From a virus, in IMG/VR virus record IMGVR_UViG_3300015063_000004, positions 327 to 64,326 of that record: a DNA stretch of 64,000 nt; one strand, 5' to 3'. How positions within the stretch are numbered: the first letter of the stretch is position 1; the number at the start of each line of letters is the position of its first letter. Shown in pieces: positions 8,325 to 58,835 of this stretch. The position numbers were made by a program, and so were the translations under genes. A model generated the notes under the pieces. It saw only the letters and a list, made by a program, of their open reading frames with translations, did not search any database and had not been told where the DNA came from.

Positions 8325-8534
8325 ATGGGAAAAGACCTGACAACCGATGAAATCATGACCCTCCTGCGCCGCCGCGTTGCCGATGCCGGCACGCAAGCCG
8401 CGTGGTGTCGAATGCACGGCGTGTCCGTCCAATACCTGTGCGACGCGCTCGCAGGGCGGCGGGAAATCGGGCCGCTGATACTGGGCGCGCTCGGGTATGA
8501 GCGGCTGCCGGTGTTGCATCGGGCTGTGCGATAG
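8325..8534 (+). CDS. Small Cro-like HTH protein
   Basis: TQAAWCRMHGVSVQYLCDALAGRREIG HTH pattern. Confidence 0.75.
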   Translation: MGKDLTTDEIMTLLRRRVADAGTQAAWCRMHGVSVQYLCDALAGRREIGPLILGALGYERLPVLHRAVR

Positions 8535-8545
8535 GGGTAGAATGC

Positions 8546-8579
8546 GAACCGCCGCCGGGTTGGCCCCTGGCGGCGGTTC
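8546..8579 (+). terminator. Strong hairpin (terminator or attenuator candidate)
   Basis: Perfect 11-bp IR GAACCGCCGCC/GGCGGCGGTTC followed by ATTTT. Confidence 0.45.
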
Positions 8580-8628
8580 ATTTTCGCCCTGGCGAGGGGC
8601 TAACCATGCGGAGGAAGGGGAACACGCT

Positions 8629-9123: not shown

Positions 9124-11423
9124 CAGACCTTTCGTCCGACCCGGCCGCTATTGAGCAATTTGTCGCGTCGCTATTCCGCTACGCCGATCCCGAGACGTTC
9201 ATTTCCCTCCGCACGTTTGACCAGCATGAGCGCGGAGGCGCAGCGGTCGCAATCGAGGGTGTCCGCGTAGGATCGGACCCGCGTGCCTTGGCCGGCAGGA
9301 TCACCAAGGCAGCCACCAAGGCGGCCAATATCGCCCCGCCAACCGTATTCGCCCCGCCCGTCGCGACCTTTGCAGGTCCGACCAAGGCGGCCACGGCTGA
9401 CCTAGCCAACGGGGTCGCAATCAGCGTTGAAATCGACACAGGCGACACCGCTGCCAAACGCCGCCGCCTCGAACACCTTCTCGGCCCGGTTACGGTGGCC
9501 GTCCATTCCGGCGGGGAGTGGACCGATCCGCAAACCGGGGAAATCCACCCCAAAGCCCATCTGCACTGGCGTCTATCGGAACCAACGCGCGAACCGGCCG
9601 ATCACGAAAAGCTGCGGCTCGCCCGCAAACTCGCCGCGCTGTTGGTGGATGCGGACGCCACCGCAGCCCCGCCCGTCCACCCCCTCCGCTGGCCTGGGTC
9701 GTGGAACCTGAAAGCGTCGCCCCGGCTCGCCACCATCGCGGCCGGCAACCCCGCGTCGGAAGTCCATCTTGAGGACGTGCTAGAGCGGCTACAGGAGGCC
9801 GTGGAGGCTGCCGGGGTCGGTGGCGTCAGTTCCGCCCCAAGAACCCCGGGCACGCCGCAGGCTCCCGTCGCCGCCCTTGCCTCGGCCATCCTGGCAATCC
9901 CCAATCCCGACCTATCCTGGGACGATTGGAACCGGATGGGAATGGCGATGTGGCGTGCCAGCGATGGTTGCCTGGAAGGGCTGCACGCATGGCAGGAGTG
10001 GTCCGCGAAATCCGCCAAGCACCACGACGCAACCTGCGTAGACCGATGGCACCATTTCACCATCTCGCCCCCTACCAAGATCGGGGCCGGCACTATTTTC
10101 CTTGAGGCCGGGCGCAACGGGTGGGAGCGGCACAGCAGCGATCCCCCGCCGGATATTGACGATCCTGGCTACCATGCCGCCATCGACCAAGCGGCCATGT
10201 CGGCCGGGGAATGGGCCGAGTTAGAGCAACGGGAGACTGGCACAGCCATCCCCGCGTCGCCGGAAGCCAAGGCGCAAGCCGGCAAGAACCTGCTCTGGCG
10301 TATCGACCAGCCGTGGGCCGAACAAGACATCCCGCTGCGGCCGTGGATCGCACGCGGATACCTCATGCGCCGATCCATCACGGTGGTCTCCGGTGCCGGT
10401 TCCGCAGGCAAATCAAGCCTTATGGTGGCGTGGGCAACCGCGCTCGCAATCGGCTGTAAATTCCACGGCTTACGGTCCAATGATCCAGTTCGCGTCGCAA
10501 CATACAACGTAGAGGATGACGGCGATGAACAGAAACGCCGCTTCTCCGCGATGTTGCAGCAATTGGAATGTCGCCACGATGCGCTAGGTGGCCGATTGGT
10601 GATCCTAGGACCGTCCCGCGTCGGCACGCTCCTACACACAACCCGAGACGGCGCGTTGCTCGTAAATACCCCCGTCATGGATGAACTGGAACAGTTCACA
10701 ATTGACTTTAAGCCTGACGTGCTAATCCTTGACCCTTTTGTGGAATTGCACGCCGCAGAGGAAAACGACAATACCGCCGTGCGCGCTGTAATGGCACGGT
10801 TTCGCGCAATGGCAATCGACCATGACCTTGCGCTCGTCCTGCTCCACCATTCCCGCAAAGGCGGCACCGACCCGGGCGATCCTGACAGCCTGCGGGGGGC
10901 ATCGGCCATTGTCGGGGCTGCCAGGGTCGCGTTGACCCTCAACGTGATGACACCGGAGGAAGCCGATACCGCCGGTATCCACAAAGACAAGCGCCGCAAT
11001 TACTTCCGGCTCGACGGCGCGAAAAACAACTACGCGCCAATAGAAGAAGCCGAATGGTTTGAGCGGCTTGAACGAAAACTCTCAAACGGCACTGAAACTG
11101 ATGGGGATGGCGTGGCCGTGGTCTGGCCGTGGAAGCCAGCCTCGCCATTCCGTGATCTTCCTACGCACGACATAAACCAAATCCTGGACCAAATCGCAGC
11201 CGCCGCACCGGACAATCTCTACGCCCCGGTTCGCAAAGGCCGCGACAATACGCGCTGGTGCGGCAACCTGCTGGTGCAGCACTGTGGCCTGACGCCAGGA
11301 CAGGCGAAAACCATCATCGACCAGTGGCTCCGCTCGGGCTTGCTTGCCACCGTTGAGTTCCGAAACGCGCATCGGGAACAACGGGCCGGGGTCGTCGTCG
11401 TGGACACGCACCGACCAAAATGA
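9120..11423 (+). CDS. Primase-helicase (RepB-like primase, PriCT-2-like domain, RepA/AAA_25-type helicase)
   Basis: EIDTGD...HSGG...HLHWRL; WDDWNRMGMA...WQEWS; GAGSAGKSS, LILDPF, LHHSRK, LRGASAI. Confidence 0.85.
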   Translation: MTDLSSDPAAIEQFVASLFRYADPETFISLRTFDQHERGGAAVAIEGVRVGSDPRALAGRITKAATKAANIAPPTVFAPPVATFAGPTKAATADLANGVAISVEIDTGDTAAKRRRLEHLLGPVTVAVHSGGEWTDPQTGEIHPKAHLHWRLSEPTREPADHEKLRLARKLAALLVDADATAAPPVHPLRWPGSWNLKASPRLATIAAGNPASEVHLEDVLERLQEAVEAAGVGGVSSAPRTPGTPQAPVAALASAILAIPNPDLSWDDWNRMGMAMWRASDGCLEGLHAWQEWSAKSAKHHDATCVDRWHHFTISPPTKIGAGTIFLEAGRNGWERHSSDPPPDIDDPGYHAAIDQAAMSAGEWAELEQRETGTAIPASPEAKAQAGKNLLWRIDQPWAEQDIPLRPWIARGYLMRRSITVVSGAGSAGKSSLMVAWATALAIGCKFHGLRSNDPVRVATYNVEDDGDEQKRRFSAMLQQLECRHDALGGRLVILGPSRVGTLLHTTRDGALLVNTPVMDELEQFTIDFKPDVLILDPFVELHAAEENDNTAVRAVMARFRAMAIDHDLALVLLHHSRKGGTDPGDPDSLRGASAIVGAARVALTLNVMTPEEADTAGIHKDKRRNYFRLDGAKNNYAPIEEAEWFERLERKLSNGTETDGDGVAVVWPWKPASPFRDLPTHDINQILDQIAAAAPDNLYAPVRKGRDNTRWCGNLLVQHCGLTPGQAKTIIDQWLRSGLLATVEFRNAHREQRAGVVVVDTHRPK

Positions 11424-11438
11424 GGCAATTCTAGAAAA

Positions 11439-11602
11439 TGATATGCGGCGGAATGTGCGGCGTGATATACGGCGAACGGTTCGGCAACGGACCAATTGCC
11501 GTATATCACCCCCCCCCCTCTTAAGAGGGGGGAGGGGTGTATGATATACGGCAAGGTAATTGGTTCTTGCCGTGCCCGAGGCATGATGTGCGGCAATACG
11601 GC
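11439..11602. repeat. Iteron-like repeats around a homopolymer palindrome (putative replication origin)
   Basis: TGATATACGGC at 11463, 11498 (inverted) and 11542; variants at 11439, 11452, 11584; CCCCCCTCTTAAGAGGGGGG at 11513-11532. Confidence 0.6.
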
Positions 11603-14408: not shown

Positions 14409-14617
14409 GCGATTACCCAACTCTGGACCGTCTAGTAACCCGTATCATGCGAGGTGGCGGCGCCGATCCGGCGTTATGGCAGGTATCGCAGGAAGATTAC
14501 GAATTGGCCGACCGCGAACTGGCAGAACAGCGCAAACGGGCGGGAATGCCGGTGCTTCATAGCGGCGAGAATGGCGGTTTGATGCTGTGCGGTCGCGGGT
14601 TGGAAGTGGTGCGATGA
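14405..14617 (+). CDS. Hypothetical protein
   Basis: ATGA overlaps at both ends. Confidence 0.55.
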   Translation: MSDYPTLDRLVTRIMRGGGADPALWQVSQEDYELADRELAEQRKRAGMPVLHSGENGGLMLCGRGLEVVR

Positions 14618-16479
14618 GCGACGCGCCCGCCACCGACTACCAAGAGCGTCGCCGCAAGGGTTCGTCGCCGATCGACGGGTCATCGGCTGCTCGCCTAGCG
14701 CGGCAGCCGGCGCGGCCGAAGCCGGCGCGGCGTGCGGCTGACCCCGACTGGAAGCGCATGCGCGGCCACGTCGAGGCGCGGCTCAACATGCTGCGGTCGT
14801 GGCGACTGTCGTGGATGCAGCACTGGCAATTGCTAGAGGCGTATATCCTGCCGAGGCGCGGTGCGTTCATCAATACGTCGATGCCCACGCCAAACACGAT
14901 GATCCGTGGTGCGGTCATCAACCAAAACATCCTCGATCCGACCGGCACGCAGGCGATGCGGATTTGTGCGGCTGGGCTGATGAGCGGCCTCATGTCGCCG
15001 GGGCGGCCGTGGTTCAAGCTGAAGCCGGCGCTGTTTCCGCGCGATCAGGCCGACGCTGCGGCTGCTGCGTGGTTTGAGGAGGTCGAGGACCGGCTGTATC
15101 AGGTGATGGCGCGCAGCAATTTCTATGACGCTGGCGCGCAGATGTTTGAGGATTTGACGGTCTTTGGGACCGCGCCTGAGTTGATTTACGAGGATGATCG
15201 GGACGTTATCCGGTGCTATACGGCGTGCCCGGGCGAGTATTTCCTGGCGGTCGGGCCGGATGGCCGGATCAATGGGCTGTATCGGATGTTCGTGTGGACT
15301 GTCGCACAGATGGTGGAGTTCTTCGAGTTGGAGAACTGCCCGCGCGACGTGCAGGAATTGTGGAGGTCGAAGGGCGCGAGCCTTGAAATTGAGAAGATCG
15401 TTGCGCACGCGCTGGAACCTAATTTCCCGATAGCTGAGGGGAGTGGCAGCGAGGTCGGCGTTGTGCCGGGTGGGTTCGCGTGGCGCGAGTGCTATTGGGT
15501 GTGGGGTGCAGCGAGCGATTGGCCGCTGGCGATGTCGGGGTTCAATGAGCCGCCGCACGTTTGCCCGCGGTGGGCGACGACGAGCAATGATCCTTATGGG
15601 CGCTCGGCTGGAATGGACGTGCTGCAAGATATCATGCAGTTGCAGGTCGAGACCGGGCGCAAGGCTGAAGCGATCCAAAAGATGGTTCGGCCGCCGATGT
15701 TGGCCAGCATTGCGCTCAAGAACGAGCCTACGTCCACGATCCCGGGCGGCATTACGTTCGTGGCGCAACTTGGACCGGAGCAGGGGATGCGGCCGGTTTA
15801 CACGGTCAATCCTGAAATCCGTGAGATGATGGAGGATTTGAAGGAAATCCAGACGCGGATTAAGACCGGGTTTTTCAACGATCTGTTTCTGATGATCGCG
15901 GAAGCCGGGAAGGACATGACGGCGTATGAGGTCGCACAGCGGCAGCAGGAGAAGCTGCAAGTGCTGGGACCGATTACGGAGCGTTGGCAGAACGAATTTG
16001 GCTCGCCTGCGATCAAGCGCATTTTTCGCATCATGGAGCGGAAGGGGCTGTTGCCGCCGCTGCCGCAGTCGTTGCATGGGGTGCCGCTGGGGATTGAGTA
16101 TGTGTCGCTGCTGGCGATGGCGCAGCGTGTGGCGGCGACGGCGAGTATGGAGCGGTTTGCGCAGGTCACGGGCAACCTGGCTGGGATTTATCCCGAGGCT
16201 CGGGCGATGTTGAAGCCGGGGCCATTTCTGCGCGAATATGGGCAGTTGATCGGGGTTCCGTCGACGGTGATGGGGACGGACGATGATGTGATGGCGGCGA
16301 TGCAAGCCATCCAGAAGCAGCAGCAGATGGCGCAGGCGGCGCAGCTTGGGGCTACGGCGGTGCAGGGCGCGCAGCAGTTGTCGCAGACGGATGTGGGCGG
16401 GGGCGTCAATGCCTTGCAGGTGGCGTTGGGGCGTGGTGGCGGCGGTGGATCGCCGCCGGCTGCGGCGAACGCGGCATGA
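14614..16479 (+). CDS. Portal (head-to-tail connector), T7/BPP-1-like
   Basis: LAAGLMSG...PWF-type motif, DLTVFGT, PYGRS, MTAYEVAQRQQEKLQVLGP, IEYVSLLAMAQ. Confidence 0.93.
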   Translation: MSDAPATDYQERRRKGSSPIDGSSAARLARQPARPKPARRAADPDWKRMRGHVEARLNMLRSWRLSWMQHWQLLEAYILPRRGAFINTSMPTPNTMIRGAVINQNILDPTGTQAMRICAAGLMSGLMSPGRPWFKLKPALFPRDQADAAAAAWFEEVEDRLYQVMARSNFYDAGAQMFEDLTVFGTAPELIYEDDRDVIRCYTACPGEYFLAVGPDGRINGLYRMFVWTVAQMVEFFELENCPRDVQELWRSKGASLEIEKIVAHALEPNFPIAEGSGSEVGVVPGGFAWRECYWVWGAASDWPLAMSGFNEPPHVCPRWATTSNDPYGRSAGMDVLQDIMQLQVETGRKAEAIQKMVRPPMLASIALKNEPTSTIPGGITFVAQLGPEQGMRPVYTVNPEIREMMEDLKEIQTRIKTGFFNDLFLMIAEAGKDMTAYEVAQRQQEKLQVLGPITERWQNEFGSPAIKRIFRIMERKGLLPPLPQSLHGVPLGIEYVSLLAMAQRVAATASMERFAQVTGNLAGIYPEARAMLKPGPFLREYGQLIGVPSTVMGTDDDVMAAMQAIQKQQQMAQAAQLGATAVQGAQQLSQTDVGGGVNALQVALGRGGGGGSPPAAANAA

Positions 16480-16832
16480 GCATGGACCTGAGCGAACGCG
16501 AGGCTGCTGGTCATTGCGATCATTGGCTTGGCATGGCTGCGGACTGCGCGCGTGCTGCCGTGACGGACATGCGGGCGCCGTTGCGGGTTGTTCCGGCGCT
16601 GAAATGCGCGCAGGAGGCGGCGCGTGGGATTGGGCTGCTGCGTAGCGACGAGCGGTGGCTGTCGGTGGCGCGTGGGTTGCAGCCGCTGATTGATCTCGGG
16701 CAGCCGAAGGGGTGGCGGCCGTATGATCTACGGTGGGCGCAGATGGGGGCGCATCTGGATCGGGTGCGGGCGCTGGTGGTTAGGGAGTTTGGCGCGGCTC
16801 GGACTGGGGCGGTGCAGGTGGTATCTCGTTGA
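16476..16832 (+). CDS. Hypothetical protein
   Basis: ATGA coupling with portal. Confidence 0.65.
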   Translation: MSMDLSEREAAGHCDHWLGMAADCARAAVTDMRAPLRVVPALKCAQEAARGIGLLRSDERWLSVARGLQPLIDLGQPKGWRPYDLRWAQMGAHLDRVRALVVREFGAARTGAVQVVSR

Positions 16833-17068
16833 CATGTGAAGCACCTAAACTCCTGCGCGTGCCTAGGAGATTTACGAGCATCGGGGATGTATTGGGATGC
16901 GCTGGTCAGATGGACCTACCGAACGTGATGGTTCTGGCAGAACTCGAAGACGGCTCGGTGGTATTTCTGACATCATCTGACCATACTTTGGCATCGGCGA
17001 ATTGGCTTTTGGATCGCGCGAAGGGAGTGCTATCGTCTAGCGGTGGAGGTTTGGGGTTGGTCGAATGA
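16829..17068 (+). CDS. Hypothetical protein
   Basis: TTG start overlapping the upstream stop. Confidence 0.5.
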   Translation: MTCEAPKLLRVPRRFTSIGDVLGCAGQMDLPNVMVLAELEDGSVVFLTSSDHTLASANWLLDRAKGVLSSSGGGLGLVE

Positions 17069-17114
17069 AGATGTTTTATGCAGATAGGTGGGGAATGATC
17101 CAACGAATGACCTA

Positions 17115-17226
17115 GGGACATTCGCGCAAGGCTTGCCTCTCTAACTCGGACCTCCTGCGGTCTCTTGGGTCCGAGGGTGGGCAAACCCGCTTCCCGTAAA
17201 TACTCACGGGTAAGGCAAGCCATCCC
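17115..17226. ncRNA. Candidate structured RNA (four-way junction), unassigned
   Basis: Outer 9-bp stem 17130-38/17213-21 enclosing stems 17145-52/17168-75, 17177-81/17186-90 and 17193-97/17206-10. Confidence 0.45.
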
Positions 17227-17249
17227 TTTTTGGAATCATCGGGGGCTAC

Positions 17250-18848
17250 ATGACATCTGGAATACGTCTATCGGTCCTGCTGCCTACGTTGGGGCGGCCG
17301 GACAAGTTGCGTCGTGCCGTGGATAGCCTTGTGGGGACGGGGCTGCCTCCGGAAGTGGAAATCATCATCGGGTTGGACGCGGAAGATACCGCATCGCGGG
17401 GTGCGTGCCTGACGCTGGGCAAGCGTCGTGGTGTGCGGGTGGTCGAGGCGAGGGCTGCGGTCACGTTGGGACGGAAGGTAAACCAACTGGCAGCCAAGGC
17501 TCGGGGCGACATTCTGATGATGTTTGCCAACGACATGGCGGTTCGGGCGGATGATTGGCACGAGCGCGTGATTGCGGCGGTTGATTTGGGATCGGCGCGT
17601 GTGTTCTGCCTTGATGACCCGTTGAACGCGGGTTTTGCATCGTTTCCGGTATTGCGGCGTGATGTGGTGGACACCGTGGGCTTCATGGCGGCGCCGTGGT
17701 TTCCGTTCTGGTTTACCGATACCTGGTGGGATGAAATCGGGGAATTGTGCGGCGAGGTGCGGCCGATCGAGGTCGGGCTGGAATATCTCGACGGTCGCGG
17801 CGGCACGATGGCGATGCGTGATTTGAAGTTTTGGGCGGAGTTTTTCGAGGCGACGCGCGGGATGCGTGTTGATGCGGCTCGCAAGTTGGGCGCGGATGAG
17901 GGTGCGCTGGCGCGTCGAGCTGCGGAGTGTGAGGCCAAGGTGAGGCATTTGCGCGCGGATGCGTTTGTCACGCAGTGGGAGGCGAACGTGGAGGGCGAGC
18001 CGACTGAGCGATATCAGCAGGCTCGGAAGGATGCGGAGAAGTTCCTAGCGCAGATACAGCCTGAGCGTCTGCCGGGGCCGCGCGTGGCGGTGTGTGTGCC
18101 ATCTGTGGGGCAATGGCAGGCTCGGATGGCGACGTGCTTGGCCGGGCTGACGGCGTATTCGGCGCTGGCGGGGATCGGGGTGGGGATCATTGGTCTGGAA
18201 GGGTCGATGATCTCGAAGCAGCGGAACGATATCGTGGATATGGCGATGCGGACTGATGCGGATTACGTATTCTTTGTCGATAGCGATATGTGGTTTCCAC
18301 CGGATGCGCTGGTGCGGCTGTTGAAGCGCGAGAAGGATATCGTGGGGGCTACCTACTGCAAGCGCGTGCCGCCATATGAGACATTGGGGCGGATGCTTGG
18401 GGCGGTGCCGACTGATGCTGAGTTGGCGCAGGGTGGATTGTGGGAGGCGGAATGGCTGCCGGCTGGGCTATTGCTGGTGCGGATGGACGTGTTCCGCCGC
18501 ATGGCGTGGCCGTGGTGGCATGAAAGCTACCGCTGGCCTGGGGAAAGTGGGTGCGAGGTTGTGAAGTCGTTCCTGCGCGCCAATTTCTCCGATGTGCCGA
18601 GCGATGGGGTGCTGGCGTGTTTGGATGGGACGGAATTGGGGCTGTGGTTGGATGCGGTTTGGGATCGTGATAAGGGCGGCGAGTGGCGGTATGTGTCTGA
18701 GGATATCCGGTTTATGCGGAACGCTCGGAAGGCTGGTTATCAGATATGGTGCGACAGCGGACTGACGGCTGATAGTCGCCATATTGGCACGCAAGAGGTG
18801 ACATGCACGCTTCCGGTGCCGGAGGAGGAGAAGTTAGCGGCGGAGTAG
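17250..18848 (+). CDS. Tandem two-domain GT-A (family 2-like) glycosyltransferase
   Basis: LSVLLPTLGRP...FANDM; second domain VAVCVPS...YVFFVDSDMWFPPDALVRLL...DIVGATY. Confidence 0.8.
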   Translation: MTSGIRLSVLLPTLGRPDKLRRAVDSLVGTGLPPEVEIIIGLDAEDTASRGACLTLGKRRGVRVVEARAAVTLGRKVNQLAAKARGDILMMFANDMAVRADDWHERVIAAVDLGSARVFCLDDPLNAGFASFPVLRRDVVDTVGFMAAPWFPFWFTDTWWDEIGELCGEVRPIEVGLEYLDGRGGTMAMRDLKFWAEFFEATRGMRVDAARKLGADEGALARRAAECEAKVRHLRADAFVTQWEANVEGEPTERYQQARKDAEKFLAQIQPERLPGPRVAVCVPSVGQWQARMATCLAGLTAYSALAGIGVGIIGLEGSMISKQRNDIVDMAMRTDADYVFFVDSDMWFPPDALVRLLKREKDIVGATYCKRVPPYETLGRMLGAVPTDAELAQGGLWEAEWLPAGLLLVRMDVFRRMAWPWWHESYRWPGESGCEVVKSFLRANFSDVPSDGVLACLDGTELGLWLDAVWDRDKGGEWRYVSEDIRFMRNARKAGYQIWCDSGLTADSRHIGTQEVTCTLPVPEEEKLAAE

Positions 18849-20221: not shown

Positions 20222-20584
20222 GTGGTCAAATTTAGTGGTATCGCGGTTCCTGTGAGTGACCGCGCGCCGCATCCCGAACCGGAGCAGCCCTACGATTCCG
20301 CCGATCCTGAGCAAGTGGAAAGGCGGCAGATAGCGGCAGCAAGGCGGGAAAAGGCAAAGCTAGATGTGGTCGCAGCGTTGATGGCCTCGCCCGATGGTCG
20401 GGCATGGGTTTGGAGTGAACTGGTGGCGGCGAGCATTTTCACCACGACGTTTGTTCCGGGCGATCCGATGGCTTCCGCGTTTTCGGAAGGTGGTCGCAAC
20501 GCCGGGCTTCGGCTTCTGGCGCAGGTCATGCGAGCCGCGCCGGATGCCTATGTTCTGATGCAGCGAGAGGCCGGCAATGAGTGA
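20222..20584 (+). CDS. Conserved pre-scaffold protein (BPP-1 Bbp19-like)
   Basis: LMASPDGRAWVW...SAFSEGGRNAGLRLL; synteny. Confidence 0.7.
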   Translation: MVKFSGIAVPVSDRAPHPEPEQPYDSADPEQVERRQIAAARREKAKLDVVAALMASPDGRAWVWSELVAASIFTTTFVPGDPMASAFSEGGRNAGLRLLAQVMRAAPDAYVLMQREAGNE

Positions 20585-21302
20585 GACAGCGGCACCGCCG
20601 CCGGACCCGGTAGCTGCCGCCCCCGTTGCGGCGGCGCCCGCGCCTGAGCCGGCTGTTGTCCCCGCAGCGGCCGTTGAGCAGGCGCCTGCCGCCGCAACAC
20701 CTGAACCCGTTGCAGTTGCCCCGGCTATCCCGGAACAGTCGCTTCTTTCAACGCCGCCGGACCCAAACGCCGAACCGACTATCCCTGTCGGCCCTACGCC
20801 CGTCGCCTACGAGGCATTTACCGCTCCTGAAGGCGTCACGCTCGATCAGGATGCGGTCAAGCCATACGCGGAAATCCTCGGCCAAGCCGGGGTTCCGCAG
20901 GACGTAGCGCAGTCGCTGGTCAACAAATACATCGAACAGCAGCAGGCCGATCGGGCGCGCGCGCTGGATGCTTGGGCGCAGCAGCGTTCGACCTGGCGCG
21001 ATCAGTTCATCAAAGACCCTGAAATCGGCGGCAACCGGCAGGCAACCACGCTGGCGCGGGCGGCCGAGGCAATCGACCGTTTCTCGGGGTCGCCGGAGAA
21101 CGCCGCAGCGGTTCGCAAGGCGCTGAACGATACGGGCGCAGGGGACCATCCGGCCTTGATCCGGGTATTTGCCAACATGATGAAGGCGCTGAGCGAAGGG
21201 CGTCCGGTTCCGGCTGTGATGGCAAAGGCGCCGTCGCAGGTATCCGGGTCGCGCAGCCGATACAACAATTCCCCCTCCTTGCCACTGAACGGAGCCGCCT
21301 GA
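20577..21302 (+). CDS. Capsid scaffolding/assembly protein
   Basis: Pro/Ala-rich N-terminus, DPEIGG, LNDTGAGDHPALIRVF; upstream of the capsid gene. Confidence 0.82.
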   Translation: MSETAAPPPDPVAAAPVAAAPAPEPAVVPAAAVEQAPAAATPEPVAVAPAIPEQSLLSTPPDPNAEPTIPVGPTPVAYEAFTAPEGVTLDQDAVKPYAEILGQAGVPQDVAQSLVNKYIEQQQADRARALDAWAQQRSTWRDQFIKDPEIGGNRQATTLARAAEAIDRFSGSPENAAAVRKALNDTGAGDHPALIRVFANMMKALSEGRPVPAVMAKAPSQVSGSRSRYNNSPSLPLNGAA

Positions 21303-26373: not shown

Positions 26374-27183
26374 ATGACGAGCATTGTTGACGTCTGTAAT
26401 CTGGCGCTGGCCGAGATCGGAAACCGATCCTCGGTCAGTTCCGTTTTTCCTCCCGACAATAGTGCTCAGGCTCAGACGGCGGCGCTGTTCTTCCAGCCGA
26501 AGATGCAAATGTTGCTGCGGGCGGCAAACTGGGATTTTGCCCGCCGGCAATTGGTCGCCACGCAGCTCAAGGCGGTGATGATCAACGGGCAGGTTTCCGC
26601 CAATCCGCCTCCGCAGCCGTTTCTGTATGAGTATGCGTGGCCGGCGGATTGCCTGCGGGCGCGGTTCATCATGCCGACCATCCCGCCGCAGGCCGGGGGC
26701 GTGCCATTGACGACGGGGCAGGCGGTGGCGCCGTGGGCCGGCTACACGCCATCGACGCGAGTGCCGTTCGTGGTGTCGAGCGATCTGGACAATTCCAATC
26801 CGCCGGCACCGATCAAGGTGATCCTCACGAATTTGCCCAACGCAATGCTCGTATATACGGCCGATCTGTCGCTGCTGCCGGATATATGGGATGCGCAGTT
26901 CCTTGCCGCCGCGACGGCGACGCTGGCCTCGTATTTCATCCAGGCGCTATCCAGAAATAACGAGCAAATGAATGGGCAGATTGCGCTGGCAAAATCCGCC
27001 ATAGAGGCGGCGCGGGCGACGAATGGGAACGAGGGCTTGCAGACAAGTGACGCTGTTGTTGATTGGATGCAGGTCAGAAACTCTGGCTGGACTCCTGGAT
27101 GGGGAGCGACGCTTGGGCCAAATGGAACGCTCGGCGCCGTTGGGTGGGATCAAGCTGACCTCCCAGGTGGTCTGCGTTTCTAA
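26374..27183 (+). CDS. Tail tubular protein A / adaptor (T7 gp11-like)
   Basis: SIVDVCNLALAEIG...WDFARR...YEYAWPADCLR; WDAQF..A. Confidence 0.85.
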   Translation: MTSIVDVCNLALAEIGNRSSVSSVFPPDNSAQAQTAALFFQPKMQMLLRAANWDFARRQLVATQLKAVMINGQVSANPPPQPFLYEYAWPADCLRARFIMPTIPPQAGGVPLTTGQAVAPWAGYTPSTRVPFVVSSDLDNSNPPAPIKVILTNLPNAMLVYTADLSLLPDIWDAQFLAAATATLASYFIQALSRNNEQMNGQIALAKSAIEAARATNGNEGLQTSDAVVDWMQVRNSGWTPGWGATLGPNGTLGAVGWDQADLPGGLRF

Positions 27184-54493: not shown

Positions 54494-54815
54494 CGCGCGC
54501 CTCCTGCCGGGCGACGGCGGCGAGCATGGCGGTCCAGATGCGACGGCATATCCAATCGCTGGGCATATCGTCGCGTATCCATTCGGTGGCCGCTTCGAGC
54601 ATGCGTTCTGTCGGCTCCCGTGGCACCACCACGAAACCCGCCGCCTCGATGGCCGGTTGGATCGCGCGGAGTGCGGCGGTGGCGTCGGGCATGTATGGCA
54701 CCCACATTGGATCATCGTGGACACCTTCTATCCCGCTAGGGTCCATGCCATCAGCCACGCACAGCGCCCGCGCCGCAGCCTCGATCGCGGCGGGAAGGGT
54801 GGAGAGGACGGTCAT
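54483..54815 (-). CDS. Hypothetical protein, paralogue A of the MTVLSTLP family
   Basis: N-terminus identical to 56786-57430. Confidence 0.7.
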   Translation of the reverse strand: MTVLSTLPAAIEAAARALCVADGMDPSGIEGVHDDPMWVPYMPDATAALRAIQPAIEAAGFVVVPREPTERMLEAATEWIRDDMPSDWICRRIWTAMLAAVARQEARDGE

Positions 54816-54867
54816 GCAATGGCGCTCCCGGCGAAAGTCAGGTCCGTCTTTCCGTCAGGCCAAACCC
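54759..54867. repeat. R1 copy A (109-bp perfect direct repeat; copy B 57374-57482)
   Basis: Base-by-base comparison. Confidence 0.9.
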
Positions 54868-55027
54868 TTGCAATCATCACATCATCATCTAGGCGAATGA
54901 CGTGAACAACCTCGCCCGCCTGACTGGCGCGACGCTTGGCTGTTCCGATAGCGGTTTCAATGTCGTCCTTTTCCGATCCGACGCGAGTGTGGCCGCCGAC
55001 GCGAAGGATGAAAGCATCACCGCCCAT
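54812..55027 (-). CDS. Hypothetical protein
   Basis: SD GGGAGG; ATGA coupling. Confidence 0.55.
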   Translation of the reverse strand: MGGDAFILRVGGHTRVGSEKDDIETAIGTAKRRASQAGEVVHVIRLDDDVMIARVWPDGKTDLTFAGSAIA

Positions 55028-55238
55028 CGTCACCCTCCCGTGCCGGTGGGATCGCGGGGGCGACGTAGCGCCAGCCGTCTTCGCCAGCAAACGCCGGATA
55101 ATAGGGCGGGGGCAGTCCGGTGCGATACCATTTGGTAGCAATCCACTCCCATACTTCCATGCGTCCACCGCCGTCAGAAACCCAATGCCACCGCTTCCCC
55201 CGATGCTCGGCCGGCGGTTCGCAGCGCGGGGCGGTCAT
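55017..55238 (-). CDS. Hypothetical protein, paralogue A of the MTAPRCEPP family
   Basis: First 20 aa identical to 57571-57777. Confidence 0.65.
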   Translation of the reverse strand: MTAPRCEPPAEHRGKRWHWVSDGGGRMEVWEWIATKWYRTGLPPPYYPAFAGEDGWRYVAPAIPPAREGDDGR

Positions 55239-55239
55239 G
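55180..55239. repeat. R2 copy A (60-bp perfect direct repeat; copy B 57719-57778)
   Basis: Base-by-base comparison. Confidence 0.9.
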
Positions 55240-55423
55240 ACTTTGCGACCCTAACAAACAGGTGGCAGTTATATCCGATGCTGACCTGGGCAAACCGGCG
55301 ATGCGCGGCGTCGGTCGCGCCATATCCCTGGAAAATCTCAGGTTTGACTTCTGCGTCGTTGTAGAAGATCAGCCACACGACAGGATCATCCGGCGGCAGT
55401 TTGTCAAACGGATCGTCCGCCAT
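55235..55423 (-). CDS. Hypothetical protein
   Basis: TGATG coupling, SD GGAGGGG. Confidence 0.6.
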   Translation of the reverse strand: MADDPFDKLPPDDPVVWLIFYNDAEVKPEIFQGYGATDAAHRRFAQVSIGYNCHLFVRVAKS

Positions 55424-55602
55424 CACCCCCTCCCCATCGCCGCTTCGAGCGCAGCGCGCATGGCGTCGTGGCGAACCCAACTCTGGTAATCGTCAAACTT
55501 TATGCCAGTTGGAATGATGCGGTTCCGGGTGCGAGTCGCCTCTTTGCGGTGCGCCAGTAAAGCCAGTTCCACCATCCCGTCATCCACCACGCGCAGCCGC
55601 GC
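55420..55602. repeat. R3 copy A (imperfect 183-bp repeat; copy B 57947-58129)
   Basis: First ~90 bp near-identical, then scattered substitutions. Confidence 0.85.
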
Positions 55603-55725
55603 TACCTCGGCGCAGAGGCGGGCGAGTTCGGACAGAACGCTTTCAATGTCTCCGACTCTGACAAAAGGCGTCTCTTCGCGAACCAACATCCACAACCGCG
55701 CCTCGGCCTGCTGCAACGGGGTCAT
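55423..55725 (-). CDS. Hypothetical protein, paralogue A of the MTPLQQ family
   Basis: Both termini shared with 57950-58285. Confidence 0.65.
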   Translation of the reverse strand: MTPLQQAEARLWMLVREETPFVRVGDIESVLSELARLCAEVARLRVVDDGMVELALLAHRKEATRTRNRIIPTGIKFDDYQSWVRHDAMRAALEAAMGRG

Positions 55726-55921
55726 GGCGCGGGGTCCGGTATGGGAAACTTTGCAGGCGCCATCCATTCGTCCATCTCCTCGGCGCATCGGCATGTATCC
55801 TTGCCTTCGCACCGTTTTCCGAAATGAGTTTCAGGCGCGCACTCACTGTCGAACTGCATCATGCGAAACCATCCCGCCCGCAGCCGCTCCACTTCCGCCC
55901 GCGACGCAGCGAGGTCGGCGG
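55722..55921. repeat. R4 copy A (200-bp perfect direct repeat; copy B 58497-58696)
   Basis: Base-by-base comparison. Confidence 0.92.
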
Positions 55922-56120
55922 ATAGGGCGACGGCAGCCGCCTTGGCACCAGCGCTATATCCCGCGCACCATGTCAACTGCGCAAATGTCGGGATACCGTG
56001 GTTGCGCCCCCACTCGATTATGTCGGACGGGCATTGTTCGGCCGCGAGGCCAAGCCAATCGGTGCGTGTCGCACGCTCCCGCGCCTCGGCGGCGAGGGTG
56101 AGGGGGTTAGGTTGGGTCAT
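55722..56120 (-). CDS. Hypothetical protein, paralogue A of the LAAEARERA family
   Basis: C-terminal ~65 aa identical to 58497-58835. Confidence 0.65.
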   Translation of the reverse strand: MTQPNPLTLAAEARERATRTDWLGLAAEQCPSDIIEWGRNHGIPTFAQLTWCAGYSAGAKAAAVALSADLAASRAEVERLRAGWFRMMQFDSECAPETHFGKRCEGKDTCRCAEEMDEWMAPAKFPIPDPAP

Positions 56121-56344
56121 GGTGCAAATCTCCTGCATTGCCACCAAAAGTCTGCACCACCATCAAGGTAATGGTGCTTGCAAATCCGGCGCTTCCATAT
56201 GCGGCGCAACCACACTAAGCCGCCATCATATGTTTCGCGTGGCAACCACGCGAACGACTTGATCCAAGGGCCGCATGGATCGCCGAACACTGGAACGAAA
56301 TCACTTGCGCTCCGCGAGAATTTCGTAAACTGGTAGATACTCAT
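56117..56344 (-). CDS. Hypothetical protein
   Basis: ATGA coupling. Confidence 0.55.
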   Translation of the reverse strand: MSIYQFTKFSRSASDFVPVFGDPCGPWIKSFAWLPRETYDGGLVWLRRIWKRRICKHHYLDGGADFWWQCRRFAP

Positions 56345-56616
56345 CCCCCGTCTCCCCGCGCTGCGGCCAGTGCTGCGCGTGCTGCTTCCAATGCGCGCAG
56401 CCCTTGCGTTGGCATGGGCAGCATATCTTCGCAGTCGGTGACGAAGTTTTTCAGCAGCGTGAGCGCATCCACCAGCACCGCGAACGCATTATGCTCCCGC
56501 ACGATTTGGGCGGCTTCCGGCCAATTAGCGGCGGATGCAATCAACTCGTCTCGACAATATATCTCAGCCTTGTCCTCCCACTGCACAACGCGCCACTCGT
56601 CCCGCTGCTGGGTCAT
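56341..56616 (-). CDS. Hypothetical protein
   Basis: ATGA coupling, SD GGAGG. Confidence 0.6.
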   Translation of the reverse strand: MTQQRDEWRVVQWEDKAEIYCRDELIASAANWPEAAQIVREHNAFAVLVDALTLLKNFVTDCEDMLPMPTQGLRALEAARAALAAARGDGG

Positions 56617-56789
56617 GGCTTGCCTCCACGCGCAAGCCATCGTTCGGCAGCCCGCGCGTTATCCCGAAGCCAGTCCGCATAAGCCGGGAACATCTTCATT
56701 TGGCGCACACGGCTTTCTTCCTCGTGGCACGCTGATATTGTTTCCATCGCGGCTTCTTGTGCTTCGATTGTAAATCCGCGTTCGCTCAC
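56613..56789 (-). CDS. Hypothetical protein, 58 aa (not in the ORF track)
   Basis: GTGA and ATGA overlaps exactly fill the gap. Confidence 0.55.
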   Translation of the reverse strand: MSERGFTIEAQEAAMETISACHEEESRVRQMKMFPAYADWLRDNARAAERWLARGGKP

Positions 56790-57430
56790 GTCCGCCCCTC
56801 CCGCTCCATCGCATCGGCCATGCGGTCGAGTAGGGCGGCGACGGCCAAGTATCCTTTGTCGTTGTTTACCTCTGCATAGCGGCGCATAAACTTCGCGCTA
56901 CTATGCAAATCCTCCGCACTCGGCTCCTGCACTTTCGGCGGGTCGAGCGCGTCGGCGGCGGCGCGGAGGGCGGACCAGCAATCGCGCACGGCGGTAAAGC
57001 TGTGGAGTTGCTCAAAACCCGCATCCACCATCGCGGATGTGGGCCTGACTGGCACCAGCGCGTAGCCTGCGGGCACCGTGCGTGCCTGCTTCCCCGCCGC
57101 CTCCCTAATCGCCCCCTCCCGCCATTTCAGCACCGCCAGCACCGCGCGCATTTCGTCGGGGGACAACTCGCCGGCGGCGAGGCGGATTGCGCTCGGTGTC
57201 AGCACCAGCATATCCGCAGCGCCGTGCAGCGCGTGGCGGGCGGCGCGCTCGGTGGCGGCGTCCACGAACGGCTGGATGGCGGATAGGGCTGCGGTGGCAG
57301 CCGAAAGCATGGTTTCCCATAGCTGCTGGCCATCATCGTCGATGACAGTATCGGGGTCGTCGCCGCCATCGCTGCACAGCGCCCGCGCCGCAGCCTCGAT
57401 CGCGGCGGGAAGGGTGGAGAGGACGGTCAT
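56786..57430 (-). CDS. Hypothetical protein, paralogue B of the MTVLSTLP family
   Basis: Shared N-terminus; C-terminus LDRMADAMEREGRT resembles 58832-59221. Confidence 0.7.
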   Translation of the reverse strand: MTVLSTLPAAIEAAARALCSDGGDDPDTVIDDDGQQLWETMLSAATAALSAIQPFVDAATERAARHALHGAADMLVLTPSAIRLAAGELSPDEMRAVLAVLKWREGAIREAAGKQARTVPAGYALVPVRPTSAMVDAGFEQLHSFTAVRDCWSALRAAADALDPPKVQEPSAEDLHSSAKFMRRYAEVNNDKGYLAVAALLDRMADAMEREGRT

Positions 57431-57469
57431 GCAATGGCGCTCCCGGCGAAAGTCAGGTCCGTCTTTCCG

Positions 57470-57574
57470 TCAGGCCAAACCCGCGACTGCTTCGATGCGC
57501 GCGGCAAGTCGGCCGCTCTTGGCGATGATGCGGGCGAGCCTTTCGGCGGCGCTGTTGTCAGATAGGGCGGTCAT
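57470..57574 (-). CDS. 34-aa ORF ending inside repeat R1 in a shifted frame (possible remnant)
   Basis: ATGA coupling upstream; its stop falls in DNA that codes WPDGKT... in copy A. Confidence 0.4.
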   Translation of the reverse strand: MTALSDNSAAERLARIIAKSGRLAARIEAVAGLA

Positions 57575-57777
57575 GGCTGCGTCTCCTGCCTCGGCGGCTC
57601 GCACGGGGCGACGTAGCGGTAGCCGAGTTCATACGCCTTTTTGGGTTCGACCCACTCGCTGCCCCAACACCCTTCCTGTCGCCATTCAGCCGGCCCAGGT
57701 TCCTCGCCCCGGAACGACACCCAATGCCACCGCTTCCCCCGATGCTCGGCCGGCGGTTCGCAGCGCGGGGCGGTCAT
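57571..57777 (-). CDS. Hypothetical protein, paralogue B of the MTAPRCEPP family
   Basis: Shared first 20 aa. Confidence 0.65.
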   Translation of the reverse strand: MTAPRCEPPAEHRGKRWHWVSFRGEEPGPAEWRQEGCWGSEWVEPKKAYELGYRYVAPCEPPRQETQP

Positions 57778-57950
57778 GGCTTGGGCATCGGCGGAACAAT
57801 TCCGCCGTAATCATTTGGAGCATAGAACTCCACCCGCTTAATCGTTCCGTCCTGGTGATATTCGTAGGACTTCACCAGTGGGCATTTGCCCGGATGTTCC
57901 TTGCCGCAGTAGGCACAATGCCTGTTCGACGTGGCCGCCGTGACTTCCAT
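57774..57950 (-). CDS. Small zinc-binding protein
   Basis: CAYCGKEH...CP. Confidence 0.6.
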   Translation of the reverse strand: MEVTAATSNRHCAYCGKEHPGKCPLVKSYEYHQDGTIKRVEFYAPNDYGGIVPPMPKP

Positions 57951-58285
57951 CACCCTCTCCCCATCGCCGCTTCGAGCGCAGCGCGCATGGCGTCGTGGCG
58001 AACCCAACTCTGGTAATCGTCAAACTTTATGCCAATTGGCATGATGCTGTTCCGGGTTCGAGTCGCTTCTTTGCGGTGTGCCAGCAAAGCCCTCTCCACC
58101 ATCGCATCATCCACCACCCGCAGCCGCGCGATCTCCGCAACCGCTGCGGCGTGCGCGGCGCGGAGGCGGACGAGTTCGGTGAGTAACAGCAACACGTCGC
58201 TTTCCAGCAGTGGAACGTCGCCTGCGCTTTCGCACTCAGCGACGTGTTCACGCAACCGCGCCTCAGCCTGCTGCAACGGGGTCAC
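57950..58285 (-). CDS. Hypothetical protein, paralogue B of the MTPLQQ family
   Basis: Shared termini with 55423-55725. Confidence 0.65.
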   Translation of the reverse strand: MTPLQQAEARLREHVAECESAGDVPLLESDVLLLLTELVRLRAAHAAAVAEIARLRVVDDAMVERALLAHRKEATRTRNSIMPIGIKFDDYQSWVRHDAMRAALEAAMGRG

Positions 58286-58500
58286 GTCTCATCCTCCACC
58301 CTCTTGTTCCACTCAATCGCAGCATCCTCGCACCAGTCCGCAACCGGCCCATATCCGGTGCGAACGTCGCCCGACTGCGCGCCGCAGTTGGTGCATTGAA
58401 CCATTCCCCACTTGGGGCGGCTGATTTCGTCGATGCCGCGATAGCACTGCGGTTGCTGGGGGATGCCGCCACAGAATGGACACGGCTTGAGGACAATCAT
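58282..58500 (-). CDS. lar: Lar-family restriction alleviation-like zinc-ribbon protein
   Basis: LKPCPFCGG...VQCTNCGAQ...AAIEWNKR. Confidence 0.72.
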   Translation of the reverse strand: MIVLKPCPFCGGIPQQPQCYRGIDEISRPKWGMVQCTNCGAQSGDVRTGYGPVADWCEDAAIEWNKRVEDET

Positions 58501-58835
58501 GGCGCGGGGTCCGGTATGGGAAACTTTGCAGGCGCCATCCATTCGTCCATCTCCTCGGCGCATCGGCATGTATCCTTGCCTTCGCACCGTTTTCCGAAAT
58601 GAGTTTCAGGCGCGCACTCACTGTCGAACTGCATCATGCGAAACCATCCCGCCCGCAGCCGCTCCACTTCCGCCCGCGACGCAGCGAGGTCGGCGGTAAG
58701 GGTGGTGATGGCGGTGGCGCATCGCTCAAAACTGGCGGCGGCGTATGGGTTTTTCGCCATGCCCAGCCAACCGTCGCGCAGTGCTTCCGCACGCTCCCGC
58801 GCCTCGGCGGCGAGGGCGGTGGGGTCAGGGGTCAT
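58497..58835 (-). CDS. Hypothetical protein, paralogue B of the LAAEARERA family
   Basis: C-terminus identical to 55722-56120. Confidence 0.65.
   Translation of the reverse strand: MTPDPTALAAEARERAEALRDGWLGMAKNPYAAASFERCATAITTLTADLAASRAEVERLRAGWFRMMQFDSECAPETHFGKRCEGKDTCRCAEEMDEWMAPAKFPIPDPAP

Follow-up and report, generated by a model that had tools for sequence, protein, structure and literature searches.

Morons are segments of extra DNA with a deviant GC content that lie between genes adjacent in related phages and that carry their own promoter and terminator (PMC3594210). The segment described here (positions 16829–17249 of the DNA analysed) resembles the morons of temperate phages, such as HK97 gene 15, in that it is extra DNA between genes that adjoin one another in related phages, it deviates from its flanks in GC content, and its small accessory gene precedes a structured region that has a U-run. 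In contrast to a moron, it has no sigma-70-like promoter near positions 16700–17250 (simple consensus scan), the start of its gene overlaps the stop codon of the gene upstream, and its downstream structure is a branched four-way junction that fails the canonical criteria, rather than a simple hairpin terminator. This cassette appears not to be a complete moron, because no promoter was found for it.

Structured RNAs provide another point of comparison. The manA and wcaG motifs are structured leaders that reside upstream of phage sugar-metabolism genes. Like manA (RF01745), wcaG (RF01761) and the twister-sister and hairpin four-way-junction ribozymes, the structured part of the cassette (hereafter the element) is predicted to form a compact phage junction RNA, and like the manA and wcaG leaders it lies directly upstream of a carbohydrate-modifying gene. 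However, a 201-nt query yields no covariance-model match to any of these RNAs at E ≤ 10. Unlike manA/wcaG-type leaders, moreover, the element does not recur in the other genomes searched, and relatives with the same downstream gene lack it.

Gene context and the inserted cassette

The window (the whole stretch of 64,000 nucleotides that was analysed) covers nearly all of a 64.5-kb IMG/VR virus record and has a GC content of roughly 62%. All genes flanking the element are on the plus strand, and its setting is defined by the following features.

14587–16479: T7-type portal gene (PF12236), upstream of the 118-aa gene
16476–16832, plus strand: 118-aa gene, orthologue of a 124/125-aa gene of relatives and left edge of the putative insertion
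16829–17068, plus strand: 79-aa accessory gene, first part of the putative lineage-specific, low-GC insertion
17065–17115, plus strand: 16-codon mini-ORF MKMFYADRWGMIQRMT, read from the sequence, with an ATG that shares bases with the 79-aa gene's stop (ATGA)
17250–18848, plus strand: glycosyltransferase family 2 gene, 532 aa (Pfam PF00535), downstream of the element

Alignment with the N termini of homologues places the glycosyltransferase start at ATG 17250. The database gene call for this protein (519 aa) begins 13 codons too late, and the homologue alignment backs a length of 532 aa. With the start at ATG 17250 confirmed, the gap that extends from the stop of the 79-aa gene to this codon spans positions 17069–17249 and measures 181 nt, in agreement with the non-coding gap of about 180 nt in the original prediction. 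No credible ORF is present in the gap, as assessed by ORF listing, by tblastx against all fetched loci and by a Pfam search of shadow ORFs. The mini-ORF at 17065–17115, which has its stop in the loop of a hairpin (17104–17124) just upstream of the four-way junction, may be a coupled leader peptide or may have arisen by chance. The glycosyltransferase gene is the last gene on the plus strand, and a converging minus-strand unit lies beyond it.

Because the relatives carry Bbp16-, Bbp19- and GP7-type head genes, the phage group can be identified as BPP-1-like podophages. The closest portal in a cellular genome, at 63% identity, belongs to a Micropepsaceae metagenome-assembled genome (MAG). Elsewhere in the window, positions 54739–58702 contain direct repeats of roughly 130–200 nt that are 91–99% identical and 2.5–2.8 kb apart (pairs 54739/57354, 55177/57716, 55420/57947 and 55722/58497), which indicates a putative tandem duplication of a gene block of at least about 1.2 kb near the right end of the genome.

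The 118-aa gene has a clear counterpart in related phages (50% identity to L032:3627–4004, E value of 1e-35). In the two closest relatives (L031 and L032), whose glycosyltransferases are 57% identical to the one encoded here, the corresponding 124/125-aa gene overlaps the glycosyltransferase start codon. Five further relatives, with glycosyltransferases that are 39–50% identical, likewise carry no non-coding gap at this point, and the 79-aa gene is not found at this position in relatives. Because seven of seven relatives lack a non-coding gap between the two orthologues, positions 16829–17249 are best explained as a lineage-specific insertion between two genes whose translation is coupled in every relative sampled. 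These seven relatives have no gap there, which excludes a conserved leader of the glycosyltransferase gene.

Between the portal cluster and the glycosyltransferase gene, L031:2810–4001 holds extra genes of 210 aa and 63 aa, L094:1695–1994 an uncalled 99-aa ORF, and the window, at 16829–17249, the 79-aa cassette. The L094 ORF takes up what would otherwise appear as a gap, and the region is unstructured (z = −1.4).

The composition of the inserted DNA also sets it apart. GC content is 0.53 in the 79-aa gene and 0.54 in the gap, versus 0.62–0.67 in neighbouring genes, and the GC3 value of the 79-aa gene is 0.53, versus 0.72–0.78 for its neighbours. The 79-aa gene and the gap therefore have a common signature, and probably arrived together from a donor with lower GC content.

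The 79-aa ORF itself is, to judge from its sequence, a real gene. Its protein product has homologues at 68–69% identity that are conserved from residue 5 onward, and relatives of this protein are encoded at 13 further loci. The gene starts at a TTG that shares bases with the TGA stop of the 118-aa gene. The proteins form a small uncharacterized family with a conserved core, LPNV...LASANW.LDR.K, whose members come from soil metagenome and viral contigs and are usually encoded in early-type operons after an HTH_3 regulator gene; the gene in the window is a low-GC insert within a structural operon (loci compared: L033–L035, L080–L091 and L107).

Downstream of the 79-aa homologues are mostly coupled ORFs, and structure in that position is not consistent. 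In one 36.9-kb viral contig (L035:856–1800 and L107:959–1992), a 75-aa homologue immediately follows a Y1 (IS200-type, PF01797) transposase gene and is itself followed by a 240-nt non-coding stretch with a z-score of −3.6 and a folding energy of −121 kcal/mol, although its sequence is unrelated to that of the element. The gap after another homologue (L083) is unstructured. At a third locus, L086:1714–1785 is a tRNA gene (47.5 bits with Rfam; ARAGORN reports an odd anticodon loop), which begins just before the stop codon (1726–1728) of a homologue with 39% identity, giving an overlap of roughly 15 nt.

Predicted fold and strand of the element

The structural features predicted within the gap, or read directly from it, are as follows.

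17104–17124, plus strand: upstream hairpin CGAATG/CATTCG with a 9-nt loop (MFE fold; pair probability of about 0.6)
17130–17221, plus strand: four-way-junction core of 92 nt (MFE = centroid)
17130–17138 (GGCTTGCCT) with 17213–17221 (AGGCAAGCC), plus strand: P1, the closing stem of 9 perfect bp
17145–17153 with 17167–17175, plus strand: P2, 8 perfect bp between CTCGGACC (17145–17152) and GGTCCGAG (17168–17175) and one U-G pair
17176–17181 with 17186–17191, plus strand: P3, GGTGGG-CAAA-CCCGCT, with a CAAA loop and two G-U pairs
17193–17197 with 17206–17210, plus strand: P4, CCCGT-AAATACTC-ACGGG, with an 8-nt loop
17224–17245, plus strand: weak hairpin between CCCUU (17224–17228) and GGGGG (17241–17245) (MFE fold; pair probabilities of about 0.6)
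17227–17231, plus strand: TTTTT run, read from the sequence

P1 closes 74 nt that hold three hairpins with loops of 13, 4 and 8 nt, and the strands at the junction are 6 and 2 nt long. The MFE and centroid structures computed with ViennaRNA both correspond exactly to the four-way junction formed by P1 to P4. All helices of the original prediction are present in the sequence, its 9-bp stem around three hairpins being the MFE and centroid fold, and the TTTTT run that it described is found at 17227–17231. A GGGA/TCCC extension that had also been proposed fares less well, with a pairing probability near 0 in the context of the gap and a cost of 6.2 kcal/mol when enforced.

According to the thermodynamic model, the fold is real, well defined and better than those of shuffled sequences. 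P1 has a pair probability of 0.997–0.999 in the whole-gap context, and the 92-nt core has an MFE frequency of 0.21, an ensemble diversity of 3.4 and no competing fold. Its folding energy is −45.1 kcal/mol (z = −4.9), and none of 3,000 dinucleotide shuffles is as stable, although the boundaries of the core were picked after the stems had been seen and the significance of its z-scores is thus overstated. The best local structure in the gap has an RNALfold z-score of −5.35, which is matched by 2 of 1,500 shuffled gaps (0.13%). Because the z-score of the complete 181-nt gap is only −1.5, the strong values depend on post hoc boundaries. Paired positions of the core are 74% GC and unpaired positions 38% GC, with G at just 3 of the 34; by analogy, such GC-rich stems and G-poor, AT-rich loops are typical of evolved RNA structures.

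A whole-window RNALfold scan places the element (17114–17228, plus strand) at a z-score of −4.09. Approximately 25 plus-strand structures from about 17 loci, mostly within genes, exceed this value, and stability alone does not single out the element in this GC-rich genome. An earlier claim that it constitutes the densest base-pairing in the window must therefore be withdrawn, since about 17 loci score as well or better and positions 11455–11598 reach a z-score near −10. The latter region is the strongest local structure of the window on both strands, with up to −70.9 kcal/mol over 112 nt, and is a long palindrome just after an 810-aa gene that ends at 11423. Local structures at 8534–8591, 26379–26468, 20625–20699 and 946–1028 also surpass the element, with z-scores of −5.5 to −5.9. 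Among these, 8534–8591 is a hairpin on both strands, 26379–26468 has a T5 run at 26444, and 20625–20699 (−56.7 kcal/mol over 75 nt) resides near the 5′ end of an ORF (20577–21302) upstream of the head genes.

Several features bear on which strand, and which type of molecule, might carry the structure. Three G-U pairs (one in P2, two in P3) are specific to plus-strand RNA: on the minus strand they turn into A-C mismatches, and P3 is reduced to 3 bp. RNALfold z-scores are −4.09 for the plus strand versus −3.46 for the minus strand, and MFE frequencies for a 146-nt stretch are 0.096 versus 0.018, respectively. The fold is also significant when computed as single-stranded DNA (z = −5.7). These models modestly favour a plus-strand RNA over a DNA-level element, because the flanking genes are on the plus strand, the G-U pairs form only there and the plus-strand fold is better defined.

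Like a Rho-independent terminator, the element presents a GC-rich stem on the coding strand past the end of a gene, with a U5 run nearby. It differs from such terminators in that its stem closes three more hairpins (74 nt) and the U-run is 5 nt away, and a terminator consensus scan finds no site in 17069–17249. A canonical intrinsic terminator is unlikely on two counts: P1 closes 74 nt rather than a loop of 3–8 nt, and a 5-nt spacer (AUCCC) separates the end of P1 at 17221 from the start of the U5 run at 17227, where 0–2 nt would be expected. Pairing between AGGGA and UCCCU that would bridge this spacer has a probability of about 0. Runs of T5 occur 31 times on the plus strand of the window, mostly within genes. 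A simple consensus scan of the gap also finds no sigma-70-like promoter for a stand-alone small RNA.

At its 3′ edge, the element approaches the SD sequence of the glycosyltransferase gene (GGGGG, 17241–17245), which has a mean unpaired probability of 0.26. The hairpin that masks this site is weak, and the model predicts that the SD sequence is occluded to about 60–75% at equilibrium. This arrangement resembles FourU-type RNA thermometers and other SD-masking hairpins, in that CCCUU pairs with the purine SD sequence of the next gene at a probability of roughly 0.6. However, there are only five pairs here, two of them U-G, the hairpin is weak and of doubtful relevance, and it is not conserved. 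Any link between the CCCUU:GGGGG hairpin and the junction domain is speculative.

Comparison with known RNA classes and search for homologues

The original prediction held that the element matches no RNA class that could be recognised, and a scan with 4,227 Rfam families bears this out. No gathering-level match to Rfam 15 is found in the whole window. Even at E ≤ 10, queries of 1.3 kb and 201 nt return no family, with only chance snoRNA-like hits of at most 13 bits over the gap. An Rfam scan of three loci that encode relatives of the 79-aa protein (L035, L083 and L086) likewise reveals nothing that matches the element.

The arrangement of helices recalls the tRNA cloverleaf, in which four helices likewise meet at a junction, one of them a closing ‘acceptor’ stem that is followed by three hairpin arms in matching order. 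In contrast to a tRNA, with its 7-bp acceptor and 7-nt anticodon loop, the element has a closing stem of 9 bp, junction strands of 6 and 2 nt and loops of 13, 4 and 8 nt, and it lacks T-loop and anticodon-loop geometry. ARAGORN reports no tRNA genes in the window, and Rfam yields no match to RF00005 or to any other member of the tRNA clan.

Searches for copies of the element were conducted with blastn, sequence patterns, exact words and a covariance model, called R1, that covers positions 17126–17232 and was built from the single sequence of the element. Phages in GenBank (blastn) do not match the element. Five IUPAC or exact patterns used against IMG/VR, of which one fixes the stems, three fix loops or exact words and one describes the P2 hairpin, give no real match; the 18 and 44 matches to palindromic patterns were rejected because they failed R1. 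An exact 23-mer of the element is absent from 185,579 species genomes. R1 was applied to 79 sources (the window and 78 loci), 12 metagenome loci, L092–L095, L107 and four related viral records. It matched nothing but the window, and no copy was detected at the 13 loci with 79-aa homologues. Among 151 genomes from the order of the Micropepsaceae MAG, the best R1 match (23 bits, with helices missing) is at chance level and was rejected. A BLAST search of 401 genomes of the class recovers only chance words of 15–25 nt. Recurring half-sites were also considered as operator sites and rejected, given that they occur in the window at chance level.

The element is therefore known from one phage, with no homologue in the viral and genome collections searched, in 552 alphaproteobacterial genomes or in the source metagenome. 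Among sequencing runs, the stretch is found only in its probable source, a soil DNA metagenome, where it is represented by one contig at 13× coverage with no variants or joints. No RNA sequencing run is listed as containing it. The element belongs to no known RNA family and forms no family of its own in current data.

Possible roles of the element

The original prediction offered a novel small RNA, a cis-regulatory leader or a structured terminator as candidates. We tentatively favour the view that the element is a plus-strand, cis-acting mRNA punctuation structure at the 3′ boundary of a cassette that resembles a moron, where an adjacent hairpin would partly mask the glycosyltransferase SD sequence. 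The cassette (the 79-aa gene and the 181-nt spacer) would have been acquired horizontally, with the element in its 3′ non-coding tail, and the element would break or replace the translational coupling seen in relatives. What the analysis shows is the fold and the fact that it is unique, the insertion, and the contrasts in composition and between strands; transcription of the element only within the plus-strand late polycistronic mRNA, and each step of its activity, are inferred. Specifically, the compact junction could bring the inserted gene's message to an end or insulate it, serving as a 3′-exonuclease barrier, a processing site or a weak attenuator aided by the nearby U-run. The CCCUU:GGGGG hairpin would partly mask the glycosyltransferase ribosome-binding site and thereby set expression below that of the portal cluster. 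Damped expression at the element would affect only the glycosyltransferase, because this is the last plus-strand gene before the converging minus-strand unit.

Several observations weigh against a cis-acting role in the mRNA. In the absence of homologues there is no covariation, and nothing indicates that the fold is under selection. About 17 loci have comparable or better z-scores, the structure is not a canonical intrinsic terminator and the SD hairpin is weak. In addition, 79-aa homologues are not consistently trailed by structure, the exception (L035/L107) being unlike the element.

The chief competitor is that the element is functionless, a fortuitous fold in junk spacer DNA that remained after illegitimate recombination had introduced the 79-aa gene. 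This explanation, although rather unlikely in itself, is nearly as likely as a cis-acting role. It agrees with the singleton status of the element in the collections searched, with the ability of relatives to manage without it, with the folding (by RNALfold z) of about 17 mostly coding loci that equals or betters its own, and with a whole-gap z-score of −1.5 that leaves the high core value to boundaries set after the stems were seen. A mere by-product is harder to reconcile with a local structure of a quality seen in just 0.13% of dinucleotide shuffles of the gap, or with four nested helices that have no competing fold (MFE frequency 0.21, ensemble diversity 3.4). AT-rich, G-poor loops combined with GC-rich stems, as in evolved RNAs, also point away from it, and phage genomes rarely retain 181 nt of useless DNA. 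Alternatively, the branched structure and UUUUU could act as a factor-independent terminator or attenuator that ends transcription of the inserted gene and lowers that of the glycosyltransferase gene. The location just downstream of an acquired gene follows the moron pattern (PMC3594210), U5 lies on the coding strand within 5 nt of the GC-rich 9-bp closing stem, and attenuation would harm no later gene, as the glycosyltransferase gene is the last on the plus strand before the converging unit. We nevertheless consider this improbable: the scan finds no site in the gap, the stem closes a branched structure of 74 nt rather than a loop of 3–8 nt, the AUCCC spacer precedes the U-run, the AGGGA/UCCCU pairing that would close this spacer has a probability near 0 and costs 6.2 kcal/mol, and a T5 run is nothing unusual in the window, whose plus strand has 31, mostly within genes.

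More doubtful still is a DNA-level element: a miniature transposable repeat or one of the REP type, a switch that works by inversion, or nested palindromes to which a regulator would bind. Perfect 9-bp inverted repeats around 74 bp, a fold that loses little in quality on the minus strand or as single-stranded DNA (z = −5.7), and the Y1 (IS200-type) transposase gene adjoining one 79-aa homologue are all consistent with it. However, the segment is present in a single copy in the 64.5-kb phage record, and no MITE or REP copy was found in 401 class genomes (BLAST), 151 order genomes (covariance model) or 185,579 species genomes (exact word), a set that may not include the host genome. Furthermore, no direct repeat that could mark a target-site duplication was seen beside the 9-bp inverted repeats, half-sites recur in the window only at chance level, neither orientation of the segment contains a promoter, no recombinase gene is nearby, and P3 needs G-U pairs that make it weaker as DNA or on the other strand. 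The sole contig presents one orientation, although contigs cannot show rare inversions. An independent RNA of a new class, whether a leader that combines a riboswitch-like aptamer with the SD-masking hairpin to sense a ligand or temperature and control the glycosyltransferase, a small ribozyme that cleaves itself or a free-standing small RNA, is very unlikely. In its favour, the multi-stem junction is compact and well defined and immediately precedes a hairpin that masks the SD sequence, none of 4,227 Rfam families is matched, and structured leaders (the manA and wcaG motifs) exist before phage sugar-metabolism genes. Real riboswitch and ribozyme classes all recur, though, whereas this element is in no other entry of the collections searched, and seven relatives express the same glycosyltransferase without a leader. 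On inspection, the sequence shows neither internal loops that look conserved nor complementarity for a pseudoknot. No promoter or canonical terminator bounds a separate transcript, and the alternative pairing needed for switching is not populated. Least probable of all is a new, single-member regulatory RNA that arrived with the cassette and has the four-way junction as its sensor; ligand- or temperature-responsive or self-processing, it would gate translation of the virion-glycosylation glycosyltransferase by way of the SD hairpin.

The structure is genuine, but it is an orphan that belongs to a mini-cassette of horizontal origin. As of now it amounts to one orphan sequence from one soil metagenome, whose value is mainly as a query against future soil-virome data, in the form of R1 or the 92-nt core. 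The comparative anatomy of the slot is the most informative result of the analysis and is valid by itself: across this phage group, the slot that separates the portal cluster from the glycosyltransferase gene appears to be a hot spot of recombination at which small accessory genes are inserted. If the element is functional, it would show a phage re-balancing expression in a tightly coupled structural operon after the uptake of a foreign gene, with a structured RNA spacer that replaces translational coupling and tunes a virion-glycosylation enzyme.
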